Assembly: GCA_051047955.1 (NCBI GenBank)
Contig: JBPGPT010000005.1
Coordinates: forward strand, 558,001 to 622,000
Reading direction: 5' to 3'
Source of the DNA: Cystobasidiomycetes sp. EMM_F5
Taxonomy: Eukaryota
Length of the DNA stretch: 64,000 nucleotides
Shown: piece by piece, positions 1,952-51,685 of the stretch
Position numbering within the stretch: the stretch's first letter is position 1
How the letters are laid out: the number at the start of each line of letters is the position of its first letter
Notes under the pieces: generated by a model
Database searches by the model: none
What the model was told of the DNA's origin: nothing
Seen by the model: the letters and a program-made list of their open reading frames with translations, nothing else
Program-made: the position numbers and the translations under genes

Positions 1952-3507
1952 ATGGCTCCGCCCAGTTTCTTCAAGGTCGCCGCAGCTTTGGCCGCGCTGC
2001 AGGCAGTCTATGCAGCACCAGCGGCTCCCGGCATGATTGCCATGGGCGCACAGGATATTGTAGCTGCTCAGACTCCCATAACCAATACTACGGCCGTCCT
2101 CAAGCGAAACTGGTGAGTTGATGTATATGGAGCCAAAAATTGTGCAAATGGCCGAGTATCGTCCATTCGCAGTGCATACTGGGGCTGGTACCCCGATGAT
2201 GGCCAGACAAGATACGGATCAGAAGGACAGTTCCAGACACTGCAAGAGTTGAACCAAAACACGGGCACTCCCGCCTTTGCCGTCGGTGCCTATGCGCACA
2301 TCTACTCGCCGCAATATGTCCGAGGAAACCCAGCTACCTATTTCAATGGGTCAGAATTGACGCCGTATCTTCAACAAGCCCTCCTTGCGAATGCTACGTT
2401 CGTTGCGTCAATATCGGTATGTTTTCCCCAAAAAGCGTCCCGAGCGTCTCTTGTGGCAAAAGTCGCTGATGATCCTTGTCGTCAGCCTATCTATGGCTTT
2501 CAAGGTTTCCTGAACAATGACACTACACAAGCTCAAGCTGTTGTCGCTGTATTGAAGACGTTTGTAGATGCCGGAGTGACAGTCTGGCTGAGATGGGCGT
2601 GCGTCTTCTCCTCTACGCAAAACATGAAAGTATACTGAATCCGCCCTCCAGACACGAGATGAACTGGTACTTTACGAAAGGCTCTGATGACGAAAACCCC
2701 AACGGCAAGGGATCCTACTATGTCGGCACACCGGCGCAATATATTGAAGCCTGGAAAGTAATGTATAACACCATCAAGCCTGTGTTGCCTAGTGTCAGAT
2801 TCTTCTGGAGTCCAAATGTAAGCTTTATCGCCCATACATCTGCGCCACACGTGACGCATATTCGTGCACTCAGGTCGATTCAAATGATGGCGTCAGGATC
2901 TACTGGCCCGGCCCACAATACGTTGATATGTGAGCGATGCCGCCATATTTGAGAGAATGGAGCGCTGAAGATCCTACACAGCGTGGGAATGGACTACTAT
3001 GTAGAGAAGAATGCTCCCAACTCGAGTTACTACGACATCGTCAGCGTGGTGAAGAATTTCCACGATGAATTTGCACTACCGTACGGATTCCCATTCTTCC
3101 TTGCCGAGGTCAGTCATAGAGACATCTATCATTTGGTATTTGTATTACGCACTCATGCATGCATTACTAGACGGGGACAAGGACAAACAGCACAGACCTA
3201 AATCTTGCATTTATCAAGACAGTCACGAGCGCCGCAACCTGCAGAGCATTGCCGCAACTTTATGGCATCTTCTGGTTCCACTACATAAAGGTTAGAAGCG
3301 GTCGTGCTCAGGATTTCCGAACTCGCTGACTTGTCTTGGCTGTTACAGAATTATATTGACCATTACCTGGTAACACCGCCGACGGCCCCTGTGGCTCAGC
3401 AGTTCAGAACAGTACGTAGTCGTCGCCTGCCGATGATGTGGGTTCCAGAACGTATTGACTAATGTTCGCCTTTTTTTCCATTCCAGTTGATGGCTTCGTC
3501 GGGCTAA
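1952..3507 (+). CDS. Secreted glycoside hydrolase family 26-like protein (multi-exon)
   Basis: Signal-peptide-like start MAPPSFFKVAAALAALQAVYAAP. Spliced motifs VWLRWA|HEMNWY (acid/base Glu), FFWSPN, GMDYY and PFFLAE|TG (nucleophile Glu) are typical of GH26. Several GT-AG introns. Confidence 0.75.
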
Positions 3508-14308: not shown

Positions 14309-17212
14309 CTAGCAGCAACCCCAGATGCGTGTATCATCCGGCCGTTGCTCATCCTTCTTGTCTGAAATCATGACCGAGTCTTTCGTACGCAGTATCCGGT
14401 CTTGCGCAATCTGGACTTTACGTTCCACCAATCTCGACGCGATTGACAGAAATAAGTCTTCGATACCCTCATCTTCTTTGGCGGAGACTTCAGAAATCGA
14501 CATGTCCTTCCATACCGGCTCTGGCGGCTGTGTTGGCTGCGGGACCTTGCTTCTTGATTGCGTTCTCGACAGACCGAATGAAGATCCAAAGTAACGGCTG
14601 TTGTTCACGTTGTGGCTGTCACTCGTCTCGCCCATCGCACTTCCCGCACCGGACGACGTAGATGAGACACCACCGTCCGCGTGATTGGCAATAGCGGCGT
14701 TATTGAGCCATTCCGAGATTTTAATCCGGGCGTCTTCGAGGTGTACTCGGCGGTGTTCGGGAGCCAGATCCGCCTTACAACCAACGATATGTACGATCAG
14801 GTCGGACGACATGTTTCGCTGTAATTCATCCAGCCACACTTTGATATCTTCGAGCGAGTCTGGCGATGTGAGATCATAGACAAGTATCGCAGCATGAGCA
14901 CCGCGGTAGTACATTGGTGCCTGAAGCAAACGCGGCCGAAAGTCAGTTCCGATACTGTATACCGGTGGACACGAATAACTACTCACCATACTTCTAAAAC
15001 GCTCTTGACCAGCTGTATCCCAAATCTGTAAGCGGACCTTGACACCGTCCATAATCAGTTTCTTGACGAGGAACGACGCTCCAATGGTAGTCGGCAGCGA
15101 GCTAGAGAACTGTCCAGTCATGTATCGATGTACGAGCGACTACGGCGTGAACAAAGGATCAGCTTGGTACACGACATGCAGTGAAGAACCATGATTGCAA
15201 AAGTTACGTACAGTTTTTCCAACTCCCTGCCTACCGAGTAGAACAATCTTTGCTTCAAGCTGATTGCTTTGCGTAGCGTCGCGGTTGGCCATGTCAAATC
15301 TTGTCTGTGGTACGGATGAATGGCTCGCAAAATCGCCTGGAGCGTTGCCGCGAGGATGATAGCCGTGCGATGATGACTGCTGTGACGGCAGACCCGAGAC
15401 CGAATGTGAATGACCATGTCCATGTGCTGACGGAGGATGTAACGAGTCATGCCGTGATCTTGTCGGAGATCTTTGCAGATGTCCTCCTGCACTCCTCTGC
15501 CCATTGCCAGGAAGCGTAGACGGTAGTGCGGAGGGCGAGGAGCTAGCAACTCGCATCATATTGTGCGAGCTATTGGAAGATGTGGATTGTGGAATATTGC
15601 TGCTTGTACGAGGTACGGGTGCATCGAGCCAGCGATGCCCAGACTGGTGAGAGGATTTGTCACGCGGCGACACAGTCGTTTCGTTGATAGATACCGTAGG
15701 ATACGGATCAAAGTCACTCAGGTGTTGAGTATTGCGCCTGTACTCTGAAGGAGGTGATCCGAGGAGACCAGACGATGAGGCGGTGTTGGTATTCAGTAGT
15801 GTCTGAGATCCGAGTGAGGCTTTCCTGAAGCGGGGATCTTGAGCAGTACTAGAGGTAGGAGAGAGGTGGTGGTGAGCAGACGGGGACGTGACGAGTATCT
15901 GTTGCTGTCGATAAGCCTGTACGTCTACACTATGCCTACGATTTGCACCGCTGATATTGCGCGAGTAATCGCCTAGGTGATCGTTGTAGCGTGCGGACGT
16001 CGATGTGCTAGGTGGAGATAGGTTGGCTTGTCGGTCCCACTCCGGAAATGGTTGGTACGGTGCAGAGCCGTGTCCTGATGTGGTGGCAGAAGTGGATGCA
16101 GACATCGAGGCAGGACTCGACAGCAGCACCGCCGAATCCGGTGGCCGCTGCTGCTGCGACGTAGGGTAATTGGCATACTGATGCTGAAAGTTCTGAAGGT
16201 GCAACTGTGCAGCCGACGAGGCAGAACTTGACGTGCCACTGCTGCCCGCTGTCGGATATCTCGCGGACGTGGGAGTCGTGGCGGCGGCATCCAAGTCGTC
16301 GGCTGCTGCGAATTGTAAGATGTGGTCGCATTGGTCGTCGTCTGCGCCGACAAAAGGGTGACGCGAGGAGGAGGATGTGGAAGTAGCGCTCGTGGGAGTC
16401 ATGATCCCCGTGGAAGATATCGACCGCGGCATGCTAGGTCGCGCAGAATTTGGTGCGGGTTCAGCGAGGCCCACGTATTCCGCGAGCGATGTCAGCGCAG
16501 CTATGGACTGGCGCCTTCGACGACTAGACGTGGCAGGCTGAGAGTGAGACGGTTCATGAGAAGTCAGGGAAAGGTGCTGCCCCGTTGTCGTTGTGAAAGA
16601 ATGAAACCTTTGTTGCTGCTGAACGCCGGCAGCGGCTATGGTGTTTGTCGTGTTTGACCGTACGAGACCTGCCCGCGGGTTCCTCCTGGACGACGCTGAA
16701 GGGAGTCCGGAGAGATGTCCGTGTCCGTATCCGCGCTGCTGCTGCGTGTAGTCGATATCGTCCTGGGCGTGGTACAGGCCAAGGGCATGGTTACGGTTGC
16801 TGAGGACGGGCGATGTGATGGCTGACTGCTGCTTGATGCCGCGCGGAGGGAGTGGACTTGTACTCCGCGACGACGAAACTGACGGCACTGATATTGACTT
16901 GGCTCCAGCTGATGACATGGTCGACCGCCGTGGTCGCGGGGGTCGACGCGCTGCTGCGATATCCTTGGCATCGGCGACCGTAGCAGCGGACGAGGAAGAG
17001 GTGGACACGCTCGTCAAGCCACTGCTCGCACTGCTGCCACTGATATCGGTACTGACACTGCTGCAGCTATCGGTCGACGGCGTGGGCGACATGCAGCTCG
17101 ATGATGGGGCGGTCTCGGCACCAGTCTTGGACGACGAGCCAGCGTCGTTTCCTACCGCACCCATAGTCGCAGCAAACTCCATACTGGTCGGAGATGATAC
17201 TATCGTCGCCAT
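14309..17212 (-). CDS. Rab5/Rab21-group small GTPase with very long disordered N-terminal extension
   Basis: KIVLLGRQGVGKT|S, TTIGASF, WDTAGQERFRSM|APMYYRGA, VGCKAD, EVSAK, C-terminal CC. G1 is in the same exon as ~670 aa of Ser/His/Gln-rich sequence. Confidence 0.85.
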
Positions 17213-21200: not shown

Positions 21201-23077
21201 CGAAATGCGAGATATCTCACTGACTCAAGCACTCGGATCTATTGGAGACACTCGAGTCGGCCCACAAGCCAGTCATGCTGTCTTTGCTGAAGGAGAGGGC
21301 TTCAGCCAGATGTTTGCCGACGGGTCGGCCGGCGATTTTTCACAAATGATGACCCAGACGCAGGTTGTAGGAACTGCAAACCTTCCTCAAGTGAGTTAAA
21401 CACAATTGCGTTCCGAAGATTAGCTGAGACTAATCTGTCTATGGTAGATGTTTCGCAAAGACGCAATCGCTGATACGCCTCAGATACGTCGTCATGCCAT
21501 CGGCGAAGTACCGATAGTCCTGGATGCTGCATTAAGGGATGCGCAGGTCAGGCAAGAGGCAGACCTGGCCTACGAAGAAGAGCAACAGCGTCGAGTTTTG
21601 ATGGCAGAGCAAGCGTGAGCCGGTTAGCTTTATAGCACTCGTCCATTGCTGATTTGATTATAGCGCACAAATTGCCCGTCTGAATGCGACACCAGGATCT
21701 ACGGTCTCTGGCGAGCTGTCGCCTATGGCACCGCTTAGCGAGAACTTATCGCGCTATGCAAGCCGTCCCACAACCCCAGCCTCGAATGACCTCTCGGACG
21801 GAGAAATGCTTCCAGACGAACAGAACGATCTTGTAGCAGATACGCCGATTGTACCTCGGCGTCTCATCCGAGCAGGAGACCAGATGACCATGGCTCTGAG
21901 CTCGCCTGATCCAGACGACGCTGATAGCGAGGATGACAACGTCCCGGACTCGGTCCCGCTGAGCAAAGCGATGAATGCATTTGATATTCTCAAGAAAGGC
22001 CAGCAACAACTGCAAAAACCGAAAGTCAAGAAGGCAGCTAACGAATATTTAGCCGAGCAAGCCGATGAGTCTGAAGATGAAGACATGTTTACGGCGCTTC
22101 GCAAGGCTGCTGATGGCGAGGAAGAAGAGGAGACGAGCGACCTTGATGGCGAACTCGATGGTCTTGTAAATGACGAGACTGTCGCCAAGGAAGAGAAGGA
22201 GGAGCAAGATAAGCTCGCAATGGAGAAGCATAAGGAGCACGTTCAAGCGGATGAAGCTAAAGTGCAAAAACGCGTCGAACGGATCGTTGCCGGTCAAGAT
22301 CGCCGGTCAAAACGAGGAGCAGACGGTTTACTCAGCGACAGTGATTACGAGGACGATGAAGCCGGCTTTCATCGCAAAGCCAAAGTGAAGAAGGCCCGTA
22401 AATTCGACAAAGTTCTCGAGGGTCTGGCTGCAAATCCCAGAACAAACGCCTTCGCAGCTTCCTTGACGGATTTGGATGGCGTTTCGGCATCGCAAAACAA
22501 GGAGAGCCAGTATCTCGGCGACGAGAACTTGCTATCACTCCCGTCTTCCGACATGGGCGATCAGGACACGGAAGACGACGACGAAGTCGATGAAGTGATG
22601 GAGGATTCATACCATCGGCGACCTAAGCAGCCAGAGCGGGAACGCACACCAGAGCTTCAGACTCTGGAGCGGCTTATTTGGCTCAACTCCCCTAGCAGCG
22701 ATATCGAATCACAAGTTGTTGATCGCTTTGCTATCCACGCTACCACCAACCGCGTCACCAAGCACAAACATGATGACTTTGCAGATCTTGACACCCAATA
22801 TACTATCGGTCAAACGGAAAGCTTTACGCGCAAGGTGATTCTTCTTGAGAAAGATGAACAGAATGACCGCGGGGTTGGCCCTGGTCGGACAAGTGCCGTT
22901 ACTGGCTTCGTTCTGCGCAATCAGAAGGGACAGAAGCACAATGTATCCACGTCCACTGTCGTACCTGTCGTCGGATCTACCTTCAAATCCAAAGCGGCTT
23001 CACAACAGCCTGTGAATCAGAGCGTATCTGGAAAGGGTCGTCTAGCAATGGCACGACAGTCTTCCAAAGCGTTCTGA
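18270..23077 (+). CDS. MRC1: Mrc1/Claspin-like replication checkpoint mediator (multi-exon)
   Basis: Large acidic, low-complexity protein with SQ/TQ clusters (FSQMFAD, FSQMMTQTQ) and the MRC1-like block NAFDILKK...EYLAEQADESEDED...DLDGELDGLVND. Confidence 0.7.
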
Positions 23078-46228: not shown

Positions 46229-48883
46229 TTAAGCCTTGCGAAGGGCCTCGCGCCATGATGCTATTTCAGTTTGGGTCCGAGGATGGCTAGTCGATGCAAC
46301 CTGTATGGAGTGTGAGCAGGCAATAGCGGCAGAGCAAGCGTACATCGTACTGTCAGAGCTGCAATAATCTGCGAGTATTGTGATCTCAGGTAGCCCGAGC
46401 TCTTGCCAGGGTCGCCTTGTCGCGCGGCTTGTGATTTAAGCAAGTTTTGCAGCTCAGACCGCATACGCAAAAGTCTGCCAAAAGATTTCAGCTACCGAAA
46501 CACTTATTAATGTTCATATCACTGACGTATTGTAGACCATGTCATCGTCACGATCTGTGCTAAGCTCGGTGATAGCCAGGAACAGGGCAGCATACTTGCG
46601 TGATACCTACGTTTTGTGTCAGCTTCTGTGCATATTGGGACGACATACCGACTGACGGAAGCGATGACGCTGTCTTTCATGACAGGACTCCGCCCAACCC
46701 CAAACATGCCGGCCATCCCACTTGGGCTTTCGCCAAGCTTCTTAATACTGTCAATCTGCGTTCCCATCTCCCTCTGGAACGCAGGCCATAATTGCAGACG
46801 GTTCCCCATCAAATACGTTTCCATGCTTGCTGTTGGGCAGGCGCCCTGTCCATCTTCACCTATTAGATTCGTATATAAACTGTCGTTTAAACGTATCATG
46901 CTGAGGAGGGCTACTGGAGGGAGGCTTTGCTGTGAAAGCAAAGTCGTGATGAAGACCTATAGGGCAGCGTCAGAGGAGCTCTCAATGTTGCCTCTGCATT
47001 ACGACATCACCTTTGCATATTCCATGCAGGGCTCGTATATTTGTTTCCATACATTGTCTCCTAGCTGTTTCCTCAGCTTCTCCTCCTTGCGGGCTTTGTC
47101 ACTTGGCAGACCGCTATTCGAGTCGCCTGAGATCACGCTAGCACTGTCGTCATCGTGGATACTAGACATCCGGCTATAGGATGCGTCTGGACTAAGCGCG
47201 CCGCTACGGGTTTGGCGACTCCAGAACGCCTTCGACTCATCTGTAGTCATGTGCGGTGCGCCAATGCTATCTGGACGACCGAAGAAGGATGTGACAAAGT
47301 CGAATTCCGAGCTAGCGTTGTCAGCCAGCACGAGAGATATCGAACGAAATAGATTCTCTGGACTGCTTTGCTGCCATAGATGCACAGACCTCAGGGAGGG
47401 AAAACAGCAGAACTTAAGGTGCTCAACCTACGAGCGCGGTATCATCTGCCATATGAGCGAGGATAACAATGTTGGAGGCCGATTCCGGCACACGCAAGGC
47501 GGTGTCCGTATCGAGAGATGGTCTGGATAGTTGGAGTCCGGCAACCGACCCATTCCGATGTTGAAGCTGAGCTGTGGACTTGGATATTCAGCCGCTGATC
47601 ACAATCGAGAGCTTGTTCCGTATACCTATTGAGGCTGCTTCCCCTACGCGAGCCGCGGAGATATCTCCCACCGGAGATCGCGCTTGGACTCGCTCCAGCG
47701 CCCGCACGTATCGCCGGAAGCCTGTCTCGTAGTACCATTGTGCGGTAGAAATGTAGTACTTTTGCACCTCGTGGGCAATTCTTGCGGAATGTCGTTGCAA
47801 GAAAGCGTAGAATGACCGGTATTTCCCAAGGATGATGGTCTGCAGGACAGCCAGGTTTGGAGTCAACGATGTCCTATATGGTGTGAACAAGCCGATAAAG
47901 AAGCCCCGAAGTGCTGATGTTACCTATACGTAGACAGCGACACAAGCTCAGACAGCTTCTTCTGGTAGGAAGCCACAAACACTTACCCGGAGGCGGAGTT
48001 TTTCCGCCACCTCGTCAAGGTCTCTCCGCAGACTTATTCGCGGCCCGCTTCGAACAGCCAGCAGTACTCTTTCCAGTTCGGCTACTGGCTCTATCCAAGC
48101 CTCGGACGGCTCGGTATTGAGCAGGGTGGCGATAAGTTTTGGAGAGATTACGATGTTGCTCAGCAACGATGTTAGATTAACTCTTACAGCCTGTCGCAGC
48201 AAGTTCGTCGGACAATGCATTTTTTCATTCCATATGTAATTGTCAATCACCTTGCGGTTGTCGAGGCGTGCTTCGATAACCTTGCTGCGCCCCTGTAAAT
48301 CAGATATATGCCCAGAAACAGCGGACAAGTCTGATTGAAAGCTCGTGATGAACGATTCGAGTGATGTCAAAAGCGTCAAGCTCGTCTGTGAGCGTATTCA
48401 GTCACAGCACGCGCGTGTCTCCACCTGTCGACATACTTGAACTTGTTCATGGAGGTCGGTGTACCCTTTCGACTTTGCGTCATCTGGAAACCTCAAATGG
48501 TCAGATATGATAATGCACAAGCCTCCCGTTGATATCCTGGATATGCACATTCGTTGTCCTCCGCCAGTTCCTGCTGGCTACGATGACTAGAAGCAGCGCT
48601 ACGCGCTTCTCGAATGTCGCCTAACTGGGCGGCCTGTTCCGCAAGATTCGAGATATCTACAAAGGCGACGGAGCACGCCGGTCGCGTCACCCGTCAGCGC
48701 GCGCGAGGTTAGCCGTGTTGTGTATCGACCTTGCCTTTGGCACCTAAAGCCTGTCAACATGTCAATACATGCGGTCAGTGCCGCGGATGATGACGGCAGC
48801 GATGGATCGCAACGCTGGACACGTACTTCTTTGTCGTCGGCAACGGTCAAAGGACCAAGGATCCTGTCCCAGTCGGCATTCAT
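46229..48883 (-). CDS. VPS52: GARP complex subunit Vps52 (multi-exon)
   Basis: LLTSLESFITSFQSDLSAVSGHISDLQGRS, YYETGFRRYVRALE, ENLFRSISLVLADNASSEFDFVTSFF, LLSMIRLND, LWPAFQREM. Confidence 0.9.
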
Positions 48884-49233
48884 GCTGTTGCAAGTCGGCA
48901 CTCTACAAAGGAACTGACACCTATAACTAATGATTGACATCTTTCGAATTTCGAGAAAGCTACTCGATAACGCCCTGACGATCGTCGCTTGTCACTTACC
49001 TTAGATTACGGTGGAAGATAATATACGCAGGCCACCTGGTCACAGTGATTGGTAAACAATCAGCCAGGGTCTGACTATGACAATTTTATGTGGGAAGGGA
49101 GAGGAGGTGGGAAATCAGACAGGCTGAGAAACTCGCAATGAATGCTGTTTGCTCAGATATCCTGGTCATCATCGTATGGGCGACGAGTTCCGTCAGAAGA
49201 AGGTACAAAGCAAGATTGCAGATGGGTAGAAGG

Positions 49234-50520
49234 AGAGCCATCGAATGGGAGTAATCCGAATTGAGTTGCGCCATGCCATCCCGTCGACTGTCGACAGTGC
49301 CGAGTCCAAACTGTAGTTCAAGGGGGTGAAGTCGTTTAGTTGATCCCGCGGTTGAAGGTGATCCAAAATCTGTCGAAACAGTCGGGTGCTCCAAGCACGT
49401 CCGTCAGCTGGCCATCGCGGGCCGCACCACAGTCTGTACACCGACATCCCGCAAGCGCTAGCTCTGCTGGCTACAGCGTCTAAACAGCTCCGTACATCTT
49501 GTAGTAATCGTAGTTAAACAGGGGCCAAACAAATCAGAATTGTAGGCGTGTTAAATCGGCCAAAGAGGAGACTTCCAGAACTTTTCATAAAGTGCGAACA
49601 AAAGCGAAAGTGCAAGAGTAGGTGCCAGACTCCGTTGCGAATACCATAAGCTTCAAAACGCTGCTCCATGCGGGGCATGAAACAGAGCCTCTCTTCTCGC
49701 GGTCGTAAGGGGGTTCCGGCAAGTCGGTCCGCGTCTGTAGCGGTCTACTTTTCTAGTCAAGCGTCATTTTTGCACGCCATTCTGGTCGCTCGGGTTTGGA
49801 CGATTGCAGGCTTCAATCAGGAAATTGTATCCTCTGCTCAAGTTCGAAAGGGGCGAAAGAAGTTGTGGTACCATCGGCCTGGACCTGTCGACGGGGAATG
49901 GCACGGCGTACCGCGTATTGCACTGAATCCAGAAAGCTGACCGAAGTGGTGTGAAACCATCTCGAGGAACCAGCTTTGAGGCAACAAATCTCCTTGACGC
50001 TTTCCCAAACTCCGCTCCCAACTGCTCATCTGCCTCGCGTCCCGCATCGCGTCCCAGTAGGTACTCTCTTCCCGATCTGCTTTGCCCAAAAGGGCGACAC
50101 GGAAGGGGCGTCTTGGAGTGACCGTAGCACAATCCCTCAGCGCACAACTGCTTTCTGGGGACCTTTACATTCAATCTTGCCAGCTGTAGGACTTGCAATG
50201 AATGCTTTTGGCTGCCTCACAGGGCTCAAGCTCCTTCGATACATAACAGCGTGCGTTTTGCTGGTAGGACGCGATGGAGCGACCGGGAAACCCAGTCTTG
50301 TCGAGCTTGATGGAGTCAGAAGAGAGCGGAGCCCGGACGAACACCCAATGGGCATCCGACCTGGATTGCTGGTAGCGCCCGCAGAAGCAGATTGACTTCT
50401 TGCCCTTCAAGGGCGTGAGCTCTGGAGAATACACTCGGACTTTCCCGCATCCGAAGAGTATAGCATTGTCGACGATGCTGTGTGTGAGGATGCTTGCAGC
50501 GGTCTCCGTCCGATGGCTCT
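49234..50520 (-). ncRNA. RPR1: Nuclear RNase P RNA, giant (~1,287 nt)
   Basis: P1: AGAGCCAUCG (50520-50511) pairs with CGAUGGCUCU (49243-49234). P3 hairpin with internal loop (50493-50447). CR-I GGGAAAGUCCGAG (50446-50434) pairs with CR-V AACUCAAUUCGGAUUA (49267-49252) to form P4. CR-IV AGUGCAAU (49924-49917) is followed by the P2 3' strand GCGGU, which pairs with ACCGC (50503-50499). P8/P9 hairpins and CR-II/III-like AGCAA and UGGGAA appear in the correct order. Confidence 0.92.
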
Positions 50521-50817
50521 GTCTGTGCACCTCGGCCTGAACTCGCAACGGATGTTCAGAGTCGGATGGCCTACAGCTACCTGCGGTCGTGCTTGACCGA
50601 CAGGCTAGCGACCATCACAGGATGGTGCTACGCCTCGCCCAGGCGTGTGTAAGTGTCGTGCGACGTCACTCGGTTGAGGGGAAACAAAGGCAAACCGAAC
50701 GAACGCAGCTGGGCAAAGATTTGGAGTCACAGGTGGCAAACGGCTTTTGAAGCGACTAGTTACGATTCGACAAGGGACAGAGGCTATAATATCAAGAGCA
50801 ACGAAGTGTTGGATCCG

Positions 50818-51685
50818 TTACACGGTCTGAAGATTCTCTACCTCAATCAAGTACTTTGTCATGTCTAGCCAATCCGAGTTGCCGTTGACTTGGATGCTGC
50901 ATGCGACTAGTGCGGACGTTGTATACTGAAACAAGCTTCGTCAGACATGTTCACAACACTTATCTTGCGCAGAACGTACCGGTTGACCAGCAGGATTGGG
51001 TTCGCAATTTGCATCACCGCTTGTTGCGCCCTTGATGCTATCGGATAGACAGTCGAAGTTAGTGTCCGCAAGGCTCAGGCGTCGAGCTTCGTCACGTACG
51101 AGCCGCACTCGAGGGCCCAATCATTGCAAAAATTTCCCATAGTGTTGCTCGTGCCAATGAGGACCGCGCGTCTAGGGTCGTTGCGTTTGCGCATCGCTGC
51201 GCTCTTTAAGTCGCGTTTGGATCGCGTGAGTCCGGCTGGAGGATCTCTTATCCAGGAATTTTGAATGATCACGACCTCCGTTTGGTCGTGGAGTTTACCA
51301 TCTGCCGTTTCTGCAGTGCAAGAAACCAGAAGAGTTTGCTGTGTAACAATTGCATTAGTATCGTTTCTGTGTGAGTCTTTCCGGGTGTTCTGGGTCACAC
51401 TTACGTCCTTGCCTGTGTAGACACTGCCATCGCGGCAGCTGGCGTACCCGGTAACAGCGCCTGGAAGCCTGCAATGACAAACTCAGTATGACAAAGAAGA
51501 GCTGGGAGAAAGGGTACTTACGAGCTGCTACACTCGTTATACCAATTCTTGCAGGCTTCGCCTTCGCTGAGTCCCTCGGGAAGCAGCACGACAAGACGGT
51601 CGTCATTACGTTTCAAAGGGGTGTGCCCCAGGACGCCGGCGACCAGCGCTGCGGCAAGGAGAGAAGAGGATGCGACTCGGACCAT
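50818..51685 (-). CDS. Small secreted Cys-rich protein with two homologous domains separated by KR sites (5 exons)
   Basis: Signal peptide MVRVASSSLLAAALVAGVLG. Domain 1 KR-NDDR...CKNWYNEC...C...C; domain 2 KR-NDPR...CNDWALEC...C...C. Canonical GTAAGT/GTACGT introns. Confidence 0.75.

Follow-up and report, generated by a model that had tools for sequence, protein, structure and literature searches.

The 64-kb stretch of contig JBPGPT010000005.1 given above (the window) carries, on its minus strand at 50520-49234, what the evidence below supports as a gene for a nuclear-type RNase P RNA (RPR) with large insertions between its conserved blocks. Read from P1 to P1, this RNA (the window RNA) is 1,287 nt long. 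Its 5' part holds P1, P2, P3, CR-I, P7, P8, P9, P10/11 and CR-II, where P is a paired region and CR a conserved region, and its 3' part holds P12, CR-III, CR-IV, a helix at the eP15 position and, completing the P4 pseudoknot, CR-V. The order is the canonical one, with CR-I to CR-V starting at RNA positions 75, 148, 512, 597 and 1254. Without the expansions the core is 284 nt, and the remainder amounts to ~1,000 nt. A previous reading of the letters (the sequence-only reading) had proposed a giant nuclear RNase P RNA at this place, and direct inspection found every sequence feature that it named at its coordinates on the minus strand. The core elements are listed below in their order along the RNA; RF00009 is the nuclear RNase P RNA family of Rfam, MFE stands for the minimum free energy fold, and L002 is a contig from a related organism that is described further on.

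50511-50520, minus strand: P1 5' strand (RNA 1-10); perfect 10-bp helix with 49234-49243; in the MFE, mean pair probability 0.97
50503-50510, minus strand: P2 5' strand (RNA 11-18), with one bulged A; partner 49244-49250; laid out as in the RF00009 consensus
50447-50493, minus strand: P3 (RNA 28-74), made up of helix, internal loop, helix and loop; aligned to RF00009 with high posterior probability
50434-50446, minus strand: CR-I and P4 5' strand (RNA 75-87); aligned to the RF00009 consensus
50424-50428, minus strand: P7 5' strand, tentative (RNA 93-97); partner 49989-49993
50402-50414, minus strand: P8 hairpin (RNA 107-119); aligned to RF00009; MFE probability 0.88; 1 compensatory and 1 one-sided change relative to L002
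50383-50400, minus strand: P9 hairpin (RNA 121-138); aligned to RF00009; MFE probability 0.77; 1 compensatory change relative to L002
50363-50379, minus strand: P10/11 5' strand and CR-II (RNA 142-158); aligned to RF00009; CR-II itself is 50373-50363
49996-50009, minus strand: CR-III and P10/11 3' strand (RNA 512-519 and 520-525); a weakly conserved block collinear with L002
49989-49993, minus strand: P7 3' strand, tentative (RNA 528-532); directly after the P10/11 3' strand plus AA, the canonical layout
49916-49924, minus strand: CR-IV (RNA 597-605); matches AGUgCA of the RF00009 consensus
49249-49267, minus strand: CR-V and P4 3' strand (RNA 1254-1272); 16 of 19 letters as in the RF00009 consensus by manual count
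49244-49250, minus strand: P2 3' strand, pairing with its 5' strand
49234-49243, minus strand: P1 3' strand, pairing with its 5' strand

The assignment to a family comes from the Rfam covariance models. On the 2.2-kb sub-window 48800-51000, searched with lax filters, and only under these settings, RF00009 matched 50278-50514 on the minus strand with 33.8 bits (gathering threshold 28, E = 8.9e-08). The match spans 237 nt at the 5' end of the RNA, and P1/P2, P3, CR-I, P8, P9 and CR-II align to the model with high posterior probability. It is a partial match, in that the 3' third of the model is forced onto nearby sequence and CR-V is deleted. A short, forced version without CR-V cannot form P4, and therefore the real 3' half must lie elsewhere; CR-IV, CR-V and the 3' strands of P4, P2 and P1 sit 0.6-1.2 kb downstream of the 5' part.

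RNase P RNA has a close relative in RNase MRP RNA (RF00030), and the locus could in principle encode that RNA instead. RF00009 was, however, the member of the clan that cmscan retained on the 5' part. CR-II/CR-III and the cruciform formed by P7 to P10/11 belong to P RNA and are not known from MRP RNA. At the locus P8, P9 and CR-II are present and aligned to RF00009, and the block at the CR-III position and the P7 and P10/11 pairings are present as assigned. What the MRP assignment has in its favor is that P1 to P4, CR-I, CR-V and the kink-turn (K-turn) or K-loop motifs in P12 are common to P and MRP RNAs, according to the accessible text of PMC1636426. We consider an MRP RNA to be extremely improbable.

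The two ends of the window RNA are joined by P1, in which 50520-50511 pairs perfectly with 49243-49234 over 10 bp, just as the sequence-only reading had stated, and which extends to a 15-nt arm, 87% complementary, that takes in P2. A 10-bp inverted repeat is unremarkable by itself (the 2 kb surrounding the locus hold three inverted-repeat pairs of 10 nt or more, one of them P1 plus P2), and so the case rests on context and on the comparison with relatives. P1 gains its significance from its position beside P2 and CR-V, from the RF00009 match and from covariation with the relative. The P4 pseudoknot, also recognized beforehand, forms between AGUCCGAG and UUCGGAUU (50434-50441 with 49253-49260) and has 8 bp, two of them G-U. 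The single P4 pair that differs from the Rfam consensus is changed on both sides, from U-A to C-G. Another perfect 10-bp complement joins 50543-50552, 23-32 nt upstream of P1 in a putative 5' leader, to 49631-49640 in the interior of the eP15-position helix; it may be due to chance, there being three such repeats per 2 kb.

The relative is represented in the phyllosphere metatranscriptome X9 by a 3,247-nt contig with a mean depth of 232, which is collinear with the window at the CR-II, CR-IV and CR-V blocks only. The letters between these three blocks number 595 and 1,608 in the X9 contig versus 437 and 629 in the window. A scan of metagenome contigs with the 23-nt CR-IV block gave two further contigs, L001 (3,312 nt) and L002 (3,308 nt), which are 98.8% alike and represent one species; because the trailer of L002 matches the loose end of the X9 contig, this is the same species as that of the X9 contig. 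The P1 strands of L002 are at 685-694 and 3149-3158, which gives an RNA of 2,474 nt (L002:685-3158; L001 has it on the reverse strand). In blastn comparisons of the window with L001 and L002 similarity is confined to the core blocks, the order of which never varies, and the open reading frames (ORFs) of L002 resemble the window only at the core blocks of the RNA. CR-IV lies inside the 23-nt block, which L001, L002 and the X9 contig share without a difference; the block with the P10/11 5' strand and CR-II is near-identical in L002 and the X9 contig; and CR-V is part of a 38-nt block with 89% identity in L002. Exact-pattern scans of the genome-contig and viral-contig collections with a 21-nt CR-V block gave no matches.

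The RNAs of L001 and L002 differ at nine places, eight of which are within ~110 nt (L002:1343-1453) that take in the end of P12, CR-III, the 3' strand of P10/11 and the linker. This cluster could be strain variation or an assembly error. The 684-nt stretch upstream of P1 in L002 contains an exact 23-nt tandem duplication (L002:570-615). In addition, a 170-nt contig of X9 matches the CR-IV block (window 49888-49931) with four differences and is then unlike both the window and L002, which hints at a third related organism.

Homologous helices were mapped in the window RNA and in L002 with the conserved blocks as anchors. This gave 66 homologous pairs in 12 helices, of which 65 pair in the window RNA and all 66 in L002; 48 are unchanged, 6 have a one-sided change and still pair, and 11 keep pairing after changes on both sides. 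These double changes occur in P1 (4 of its 10 pairs, with all 10 bp formed in both species), P2 (2), P7, P8, P9, and the canonical stem (C-stem) and non-canonical stem (NC-stem) of the K-turn described below (1 each). P2 has a C-A mismatch in the window RNA that is a G-C pair in L002, and thus has 6 of 7 bp in the former and 7 of 7 in the latter. All 8 bp of P4 are kept in L002, with two one-sided changes, and the pairing of the P10/11 3' strand with 50374-50379 shows a change from U-A to U-G. As a control, the 3' partners were slid by 1-3 positions; 21-30 pairs then form, with 0-3 double changes.

These counts bear on the idea that insertions of DNA have broken up an RPR copy here, leaving it decaying or without function, and that a functional gene of normal size exists elsewhere. 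Such a copy might well have no RNA polymerase III (Pol III) terminator and no A or B box, as is found here (see below), and might be invisible to standard scans, as this locus is. However, all of the conserved regions are intact, an RNA library contains the relative's version in abundance, and the pairing of long-range helices across the inserts is maintained through compensatory changes in a second species, in which the inserts differ and are larger. Compensatory changes across differing inserts imply selection on the full-length fold, and we regard a disrupted copy as very unlikely.

Unconstrained folding agrees with most of this structure. The MFE of the window RNA recovers P1, P3, P8, P9, the P12 base, the K-turn stems and the eP15 base, with probabilities of 0.95 and 0.94 for the base and distal stems of P3, the base helix of which is identical in L002. 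The MFE of the full-length L002 RNA recovers P1, P2, P7, P8, P9, P10/11, the K-turn stems and the eP15 base. P8 and P9 are firm, and P7 and P10/11 are firm in L002, where a 7-bp P7 is in the MFE, and tentative in the window RNA, where their probability is ~0.25. P10/11 has 6 bp in the window RNA (50374-50379 with 49996-50001), and enforcing P7, P10/11 and the P12 base together costs 0.6 kcal/mol. CR-III was assigned from its position and from a 5-nt sequence, UGNNA, that we take to be its consensus.

Several other pairings were considered and put aside. The MFE of the window RNA contains a window-specific 9-bp alternative to P7 (50418-50426 with 49928-49938), which was not adopted because the homologous, covarying P7 adjoins P10/11. 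The solution forced by Rfam, in which P10/11 pairs with a local CGUCCG segment and P7 is also local, has no counterpart in L002 and was rejected. A pairing of P10/11 with the CGYCC of a block that was later seen to be a K-turn strand would cross the base helix of P12, and the CUCUCUUC/GAAGAGAG helix has a probability of 0.0 as the P12 base.

The extra length of the window RNA sits at four places, and the larger of the two big insertions lies between CR-IV and CR-V:

50332-50362, minus strand: extra hairpin between CR-II and P12 (RNA 159-189, 31 nt), from folds; missing in L002, which has 2 nt there
50010-50331, minus strand: expanded P12 (RNA 190-511, 322 nt), with an 8-bp base helix abutting CR-III
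50063-50119, minus strand: K-turn-like internal loop and enclosed hairpin within P12 (RNA 402-415 with 448-458)
49925-49988, minus strand: P7 to CR-IV linker, which includes an additional hairpin (RNA 533-596, 64 nt), from folds
49269-49908, minus strand: expanded eP15-position helix, CR-IV to CR-V (RNA 613-1252, 640 nt); interior 49278-49899, 622 nt

The sequence-only reading had placed the insertions at 49289-49886 and in most of 50010-50365, and these intervals agree within ~12 nt with the eP15 interior and with the CR-II to CR-III interval (50010-50362), respectively. The P12 base helix (RNA 190-197/504-511) has a probability of 1.0 in the window RNA, and the P12 domain folds better than dinucleotide shuffles (z = -3.79; none of 100 shuffles folds as well). 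P12 of L002 is 494 nt long and has a 6-bp helix at the equivalent place. The 9-bp base helix of the eP15-position domain is in the window MFE with a probability of 0.99, and the domain as a whole has z = -2.92, with one of 20 shuffles folding as well. In L002 this domain is 1,618 nt, and a homologous 7-bp base, present in the MFE, closes an interior of 1,604 nt. One G-U pair of the eP15 base is A-U in L002 and also in a strain in run X9 that is at least 99% identical (49904 C>T), and blastn of the eP15 interiors of the window and L002 found no similarity between them. The linker from P7 to CR-IV is 76 nt in L002, shares a CCUCGA block with the window RNA and is short in the RF00009 consensus. 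P3 is 47 nt in the window RNA and 95 nt in L002.

The internal loop within P12 has the layout of a K-turn, with a C-stem, a 3-nt bulge and tandem G-A/A-G pairs, as judged by what we take to be the K-turn consensus. The letters of the loop are identical in the window RNA and L002, and the two flanking stems, one compensatory change in each, are in the MFEs of both. K-turns in P12 of P and MRP RNAs have been reported by Rosenblad et al., with Rpp38/Pop3 suggested as the binder (accessible part of PMC1636426).

A more serious alternative is that the insertions do not persist. They could be excised, or the RNA could be cleaved into two or three fragments that remain associated through the P1, P12-base and eP15-base helices, which would leave a functional mass of ~300-450 nt. 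Both large inserts are indeed closed by stable, conserved helices that are able to hold fragments, the interiors of the inserts have no sequence conservation, and the L002 insert holds a U9 run and several U5 runs. Against this, the contig of the L002 species in the X9 RNA library carries both inserts uninterrupted at its mean depth of 232, and a conserved K-turn with covarying stems lies deep in the P12 insert. Neither group I/II introns nor any other Rfam family was detected in 48800-51000 (E up to 10) or in L001 and L002 (E up to 1). No joint that skips an insert was seen in the placed contigs, although rare forms could escape contigs, and both of the joints that were listed carry other letters. 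We think that processing of this kind is unlikely, and that an RNA which retains its outgrowths is the better reading.

In regard to transcription, contigs from runs X1 and X2 extend past P1 on the 5' side and may mark a leader:

50521-50665, minus strand: possible 5' leader, putative; the X1 and X2 contigs end at 50665 and 50659

The only run recorded as RNA, X9, has two 151-nt contigs that match the window at 49862-50134, inside the RNA, with an identity of 99% or more. Three independent assemblies of the L002 species, of 3,247, 3,308 and 3,312 nt, have nearly the same ends (the first being from RNA, the other two from either DNA or RNA), and the L002-type RNA looks like a discrete ~3.3-kb transcript with a 684-nt leader.

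A yeast RPR1-type gene transcribed by Pol III has a T-run terminator after its 3' end and A and B boxes in its leader. At this locus neither signal of a classical Pol III RPR gene was found. On the sense strand there is no run of four or more Ts between 49234 and 48372 (862 nt past the 3' end) and no run of five or more for over 2.2 kb past the 3' end (to below 47000), and the 500 nt upstream of the window RNA contain no A box or B box with up to one mismatch and no TATA match. In L002 there is one weak A-box and one weak B-box match, 211 nt apart, a frequency expected by chance. The L002 RNA also contains a U9 run inside its eP15 expansion (L002:2791-2799, RNA position 2107) and three U5 runs. 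The lack of a T-run terminator, together with the internal U9 in the relative, makes classical Pol III transcription doubtful, and by analogy with other RPR genes that have left Pol III, transcription by RNA polymerase II (Pol II) may be suggested.

Several observations count against a giant RNase P RNA at this locus. The cmscan of the whole window at gathering thresholds returned no matches, a miss that the sequence-only reading had predicted for global covariance-model scans. The 3' piece alone (49150-49520) gave no RF00009 match, being too short to score, the 5' part of L002 reached only 12.7 bits (E = 0.1) against RF00009, and the whole L001 and L002 contigs had no RF00009 match at E up to 1. 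P7 and P10/11 are absent from the MFE of the window RNA (probabilities 0.26 and 0.24), the full-length L002 MFE contains none of the 6 pairs of the P3 base and none of the 6 of the P12 base, although the P12 base does appear when the specificity domain is folded alone, and one L001 substitution, in the cluster of eight differences, breaks a P10/11 pair. The comparison covers only two species, and the pair counts are partly circular because the same sequences had been searched for pairing to identify P7, P10/11, the P12 base and the K-turn stems. Direct evidence that the window RNA itself is expressed is slight. The X1 and X2 contigs cover 49323-49712 and 49805-50665 at a depth of 3-5, and the runs are only guessed to be RNA; no contig lies on 48921-49322 or 50666-50820, so that 49234-49322 of the RNA is uncovered by them. 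The poly(A) run X13 placed no reads on the locus, a result that is no test of expression. The near-equal lengths of the L002-type contigs suggest a transcript that continues 684 nt beyond the 5' side of P1, a feature that a simple picture running from P1 to P1 leaves unexplained. Finally, as the analysis covered the window, a second, normal-sized RPR gene may exist elsewhere in the genome.

Overall, every sequence-level criterion that could be applied here places the locus in the nuclear RNase P RNA family, and RF00009 as the best clan member for the 5' part, joined to a covarying, distal 3' part, bears out the proposal of a giant nuclear RNase P RNA. The gene most probably encodes the nuclear RNase P RNA subunit of a basidiomycete-like fungus, 1,287 nt long and consisting of a core with retained outgrowths. 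In the mechanism that we propose, the ~284-nt core would form the usual two-domain ribozyme scaffold, with a catalytic domain of P1 to P4 and CR-I, CR-IV and CR-V around the P4 pseudoknot, and a specificity domain of P7 to P10/11 with the CR-II/CR-III loop that would read the T-arm of the pre-tRNA. The other ~1,000 nt would be helical outgrowths at tolerated positions, namely P12, the eP15-position helix and two small extra hairpins. The P12 K-turn probably binds an L7Ae-type subunit of the Pop3/Rpp38 class, and the outgrowths presumably persist in the mature RNA, where they would form rods that evolve quickly, much like the expansion segments of rRNA. Classical transcription by Pol III is improbable for this gene. 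The sequence elements with their order and pairing, the covariation with the relative and the miss by standard scans are what the analysis shows; for the window RNA we infer its catalysis, its protein partners, the retention of its inserts and its polymerase.

A bolder version of this explanation takes in the whole lineage. It holds that the largest known RNase P RNAs (1.3 to ~2.5 kb) belong to a clade of basidiomycete yeasts of the phyllosphere and grew mainly at the eP15 position of the catalytic domain, not in the specificity domain, that the gene left Pol III and is now made as a lengthy Pol II-type transcript (~3.3 kb in the relative), and that release from the length and T-run constraints of Pol III allowed a runaway expansion. 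We offer this as a speculative scenario that is rather doubtful at present.

The RNA gene lies between two genes on the same strand. Just downstream is a Vps52-like gene (Pfam Vps52_CC at 47948-48379, minus strand, E = 2.7e-10), the exons of which continue to ~45 kb. No tRNA genes were found in the window, none of the five tested ORFs that overlap the locus has a Pfam family, and no repeats link the locus to other parts of the window. Farther away, an MRC1-like ORF (21725-23077, plus strand) gave four matches, each with a named source, from Rhodosporidiobolus, Sporobolomyces, Rhodotorula and Calocera, all four of them Basidiomycota, with 27-34% identity. This lends some, if slight, support to the 'basidiomycete-type genome' of the sequence-only reading. 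The window also has a Ras-family GTPase ORF (14309-15121, minus strand), which like the MRC1-like ORF is an ordinary eukaryotic gene that served here as a guide to context and taxonomy, and a 690-amino-acid ORF (15140-17212, minus strand) that has no Pfam family and matched only itself in a search of 5.8 billion proteins.

RNase P RNA is among the most conserved ribozymes, and kilobase versions have otherwise been found reported only from Nakaseomyces. What is new here is the lineage, the site of the largest insertion in the catalytic domain, the size of the relative's RNA and the finding of no Pol III signals. A second origin in a basidiomycete-like lineage would mean that the scaffold tolerates very large outgrowths, and an outgrowth in the catalytic domain is natural material for asking whether such expansions act or are neutral. 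The missing Pol III signals tie the size of the RNA to the choice of polymerase. In addition, standard Rfam annotation misses the gene, and some of the fungal genomes that have been reported to have no RPR may hide genes of this type.

Nuclear RNase P RNAs of the RF00009 type are typically ~300-400 nt long. The window RNA is like them in having all of the consensus elements in the same order within a 284-nt core and unlike them in its ~1,000 extra nt, in not aligning to the full-length model and in escaping default scans. Among basidiomycetes, the RPRs of Auricularia and Inocybe are ~300 nt (accessible text of PMC9849065), and a literature search, which did not reach the data and supplements of Kachouri et al. 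2005 and Piccinelli et al. 2005, found no kilobase RPR from this group. The P RNAs of Plasmodium have an extended P3, eP8', P12 and eP19, as the accessible part of PMC1636426 describes. They resemble the window RNA in combining a conserved core with highly extended peripheral helices, including P12, and differ from it in that the extensions here are in P12 and at the eP15 position (plus P3 in the relative) and that the lineages are unrelated. Insect RNase P RNA genes depend on Pol II and lie in introns of host genes, according to the accessible text of PMC9849065, which cites Manivannan et al. 2015. The window gene would share with them an apparent departure from the classical Pol III unit, the polymerase here being deduced, whereas insect genes are intronic and of normal size and the window gene lies between two same-strand genes.

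The RPR1 genes of Nakaseomyces, including that of C. glabrata, are like the window gene in that they specify a kilobase nuclear RNase P RNA with insertions into an otherwise canonical core. C. glabrata RPR1 is reportedly 1,149 nt long, and its three insertions are said to be confined to the specificity domain. Unlike that pattern, the largest insertion of the window RNA is in the catalytic domain, between CR-IV and CR-V; the window gene also differs in having no T-run terminator and in a relative that reaches 2,474 nt. The RPR1 of N. delphensis has 1,368 nt, versus 369 nt in S. cerevisiae, and since this is the largest RPR found in print (accessible text of PMC3847288), the RNA of the relative is ~1.8 times as long. 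Nakaseomyces belongs to the Saccharomycotina, whereas the host of the window is basidiomycete-like by its G+C content and neighboring genes. The window RNA thus agrees with the Nakaseomyces type in its size and departs from it in the placement of its largest insertion outside the specificity domain and in its host. The sequence-only reading had also suggested that the expansion is independent of that in Nakaseomyces. With ~52-56% G+C at the locus and no insert sequence in common with the relative, and thus on composition and insert comparison rather than on a phylogeny, independent expansion in the two lineages is very likely.

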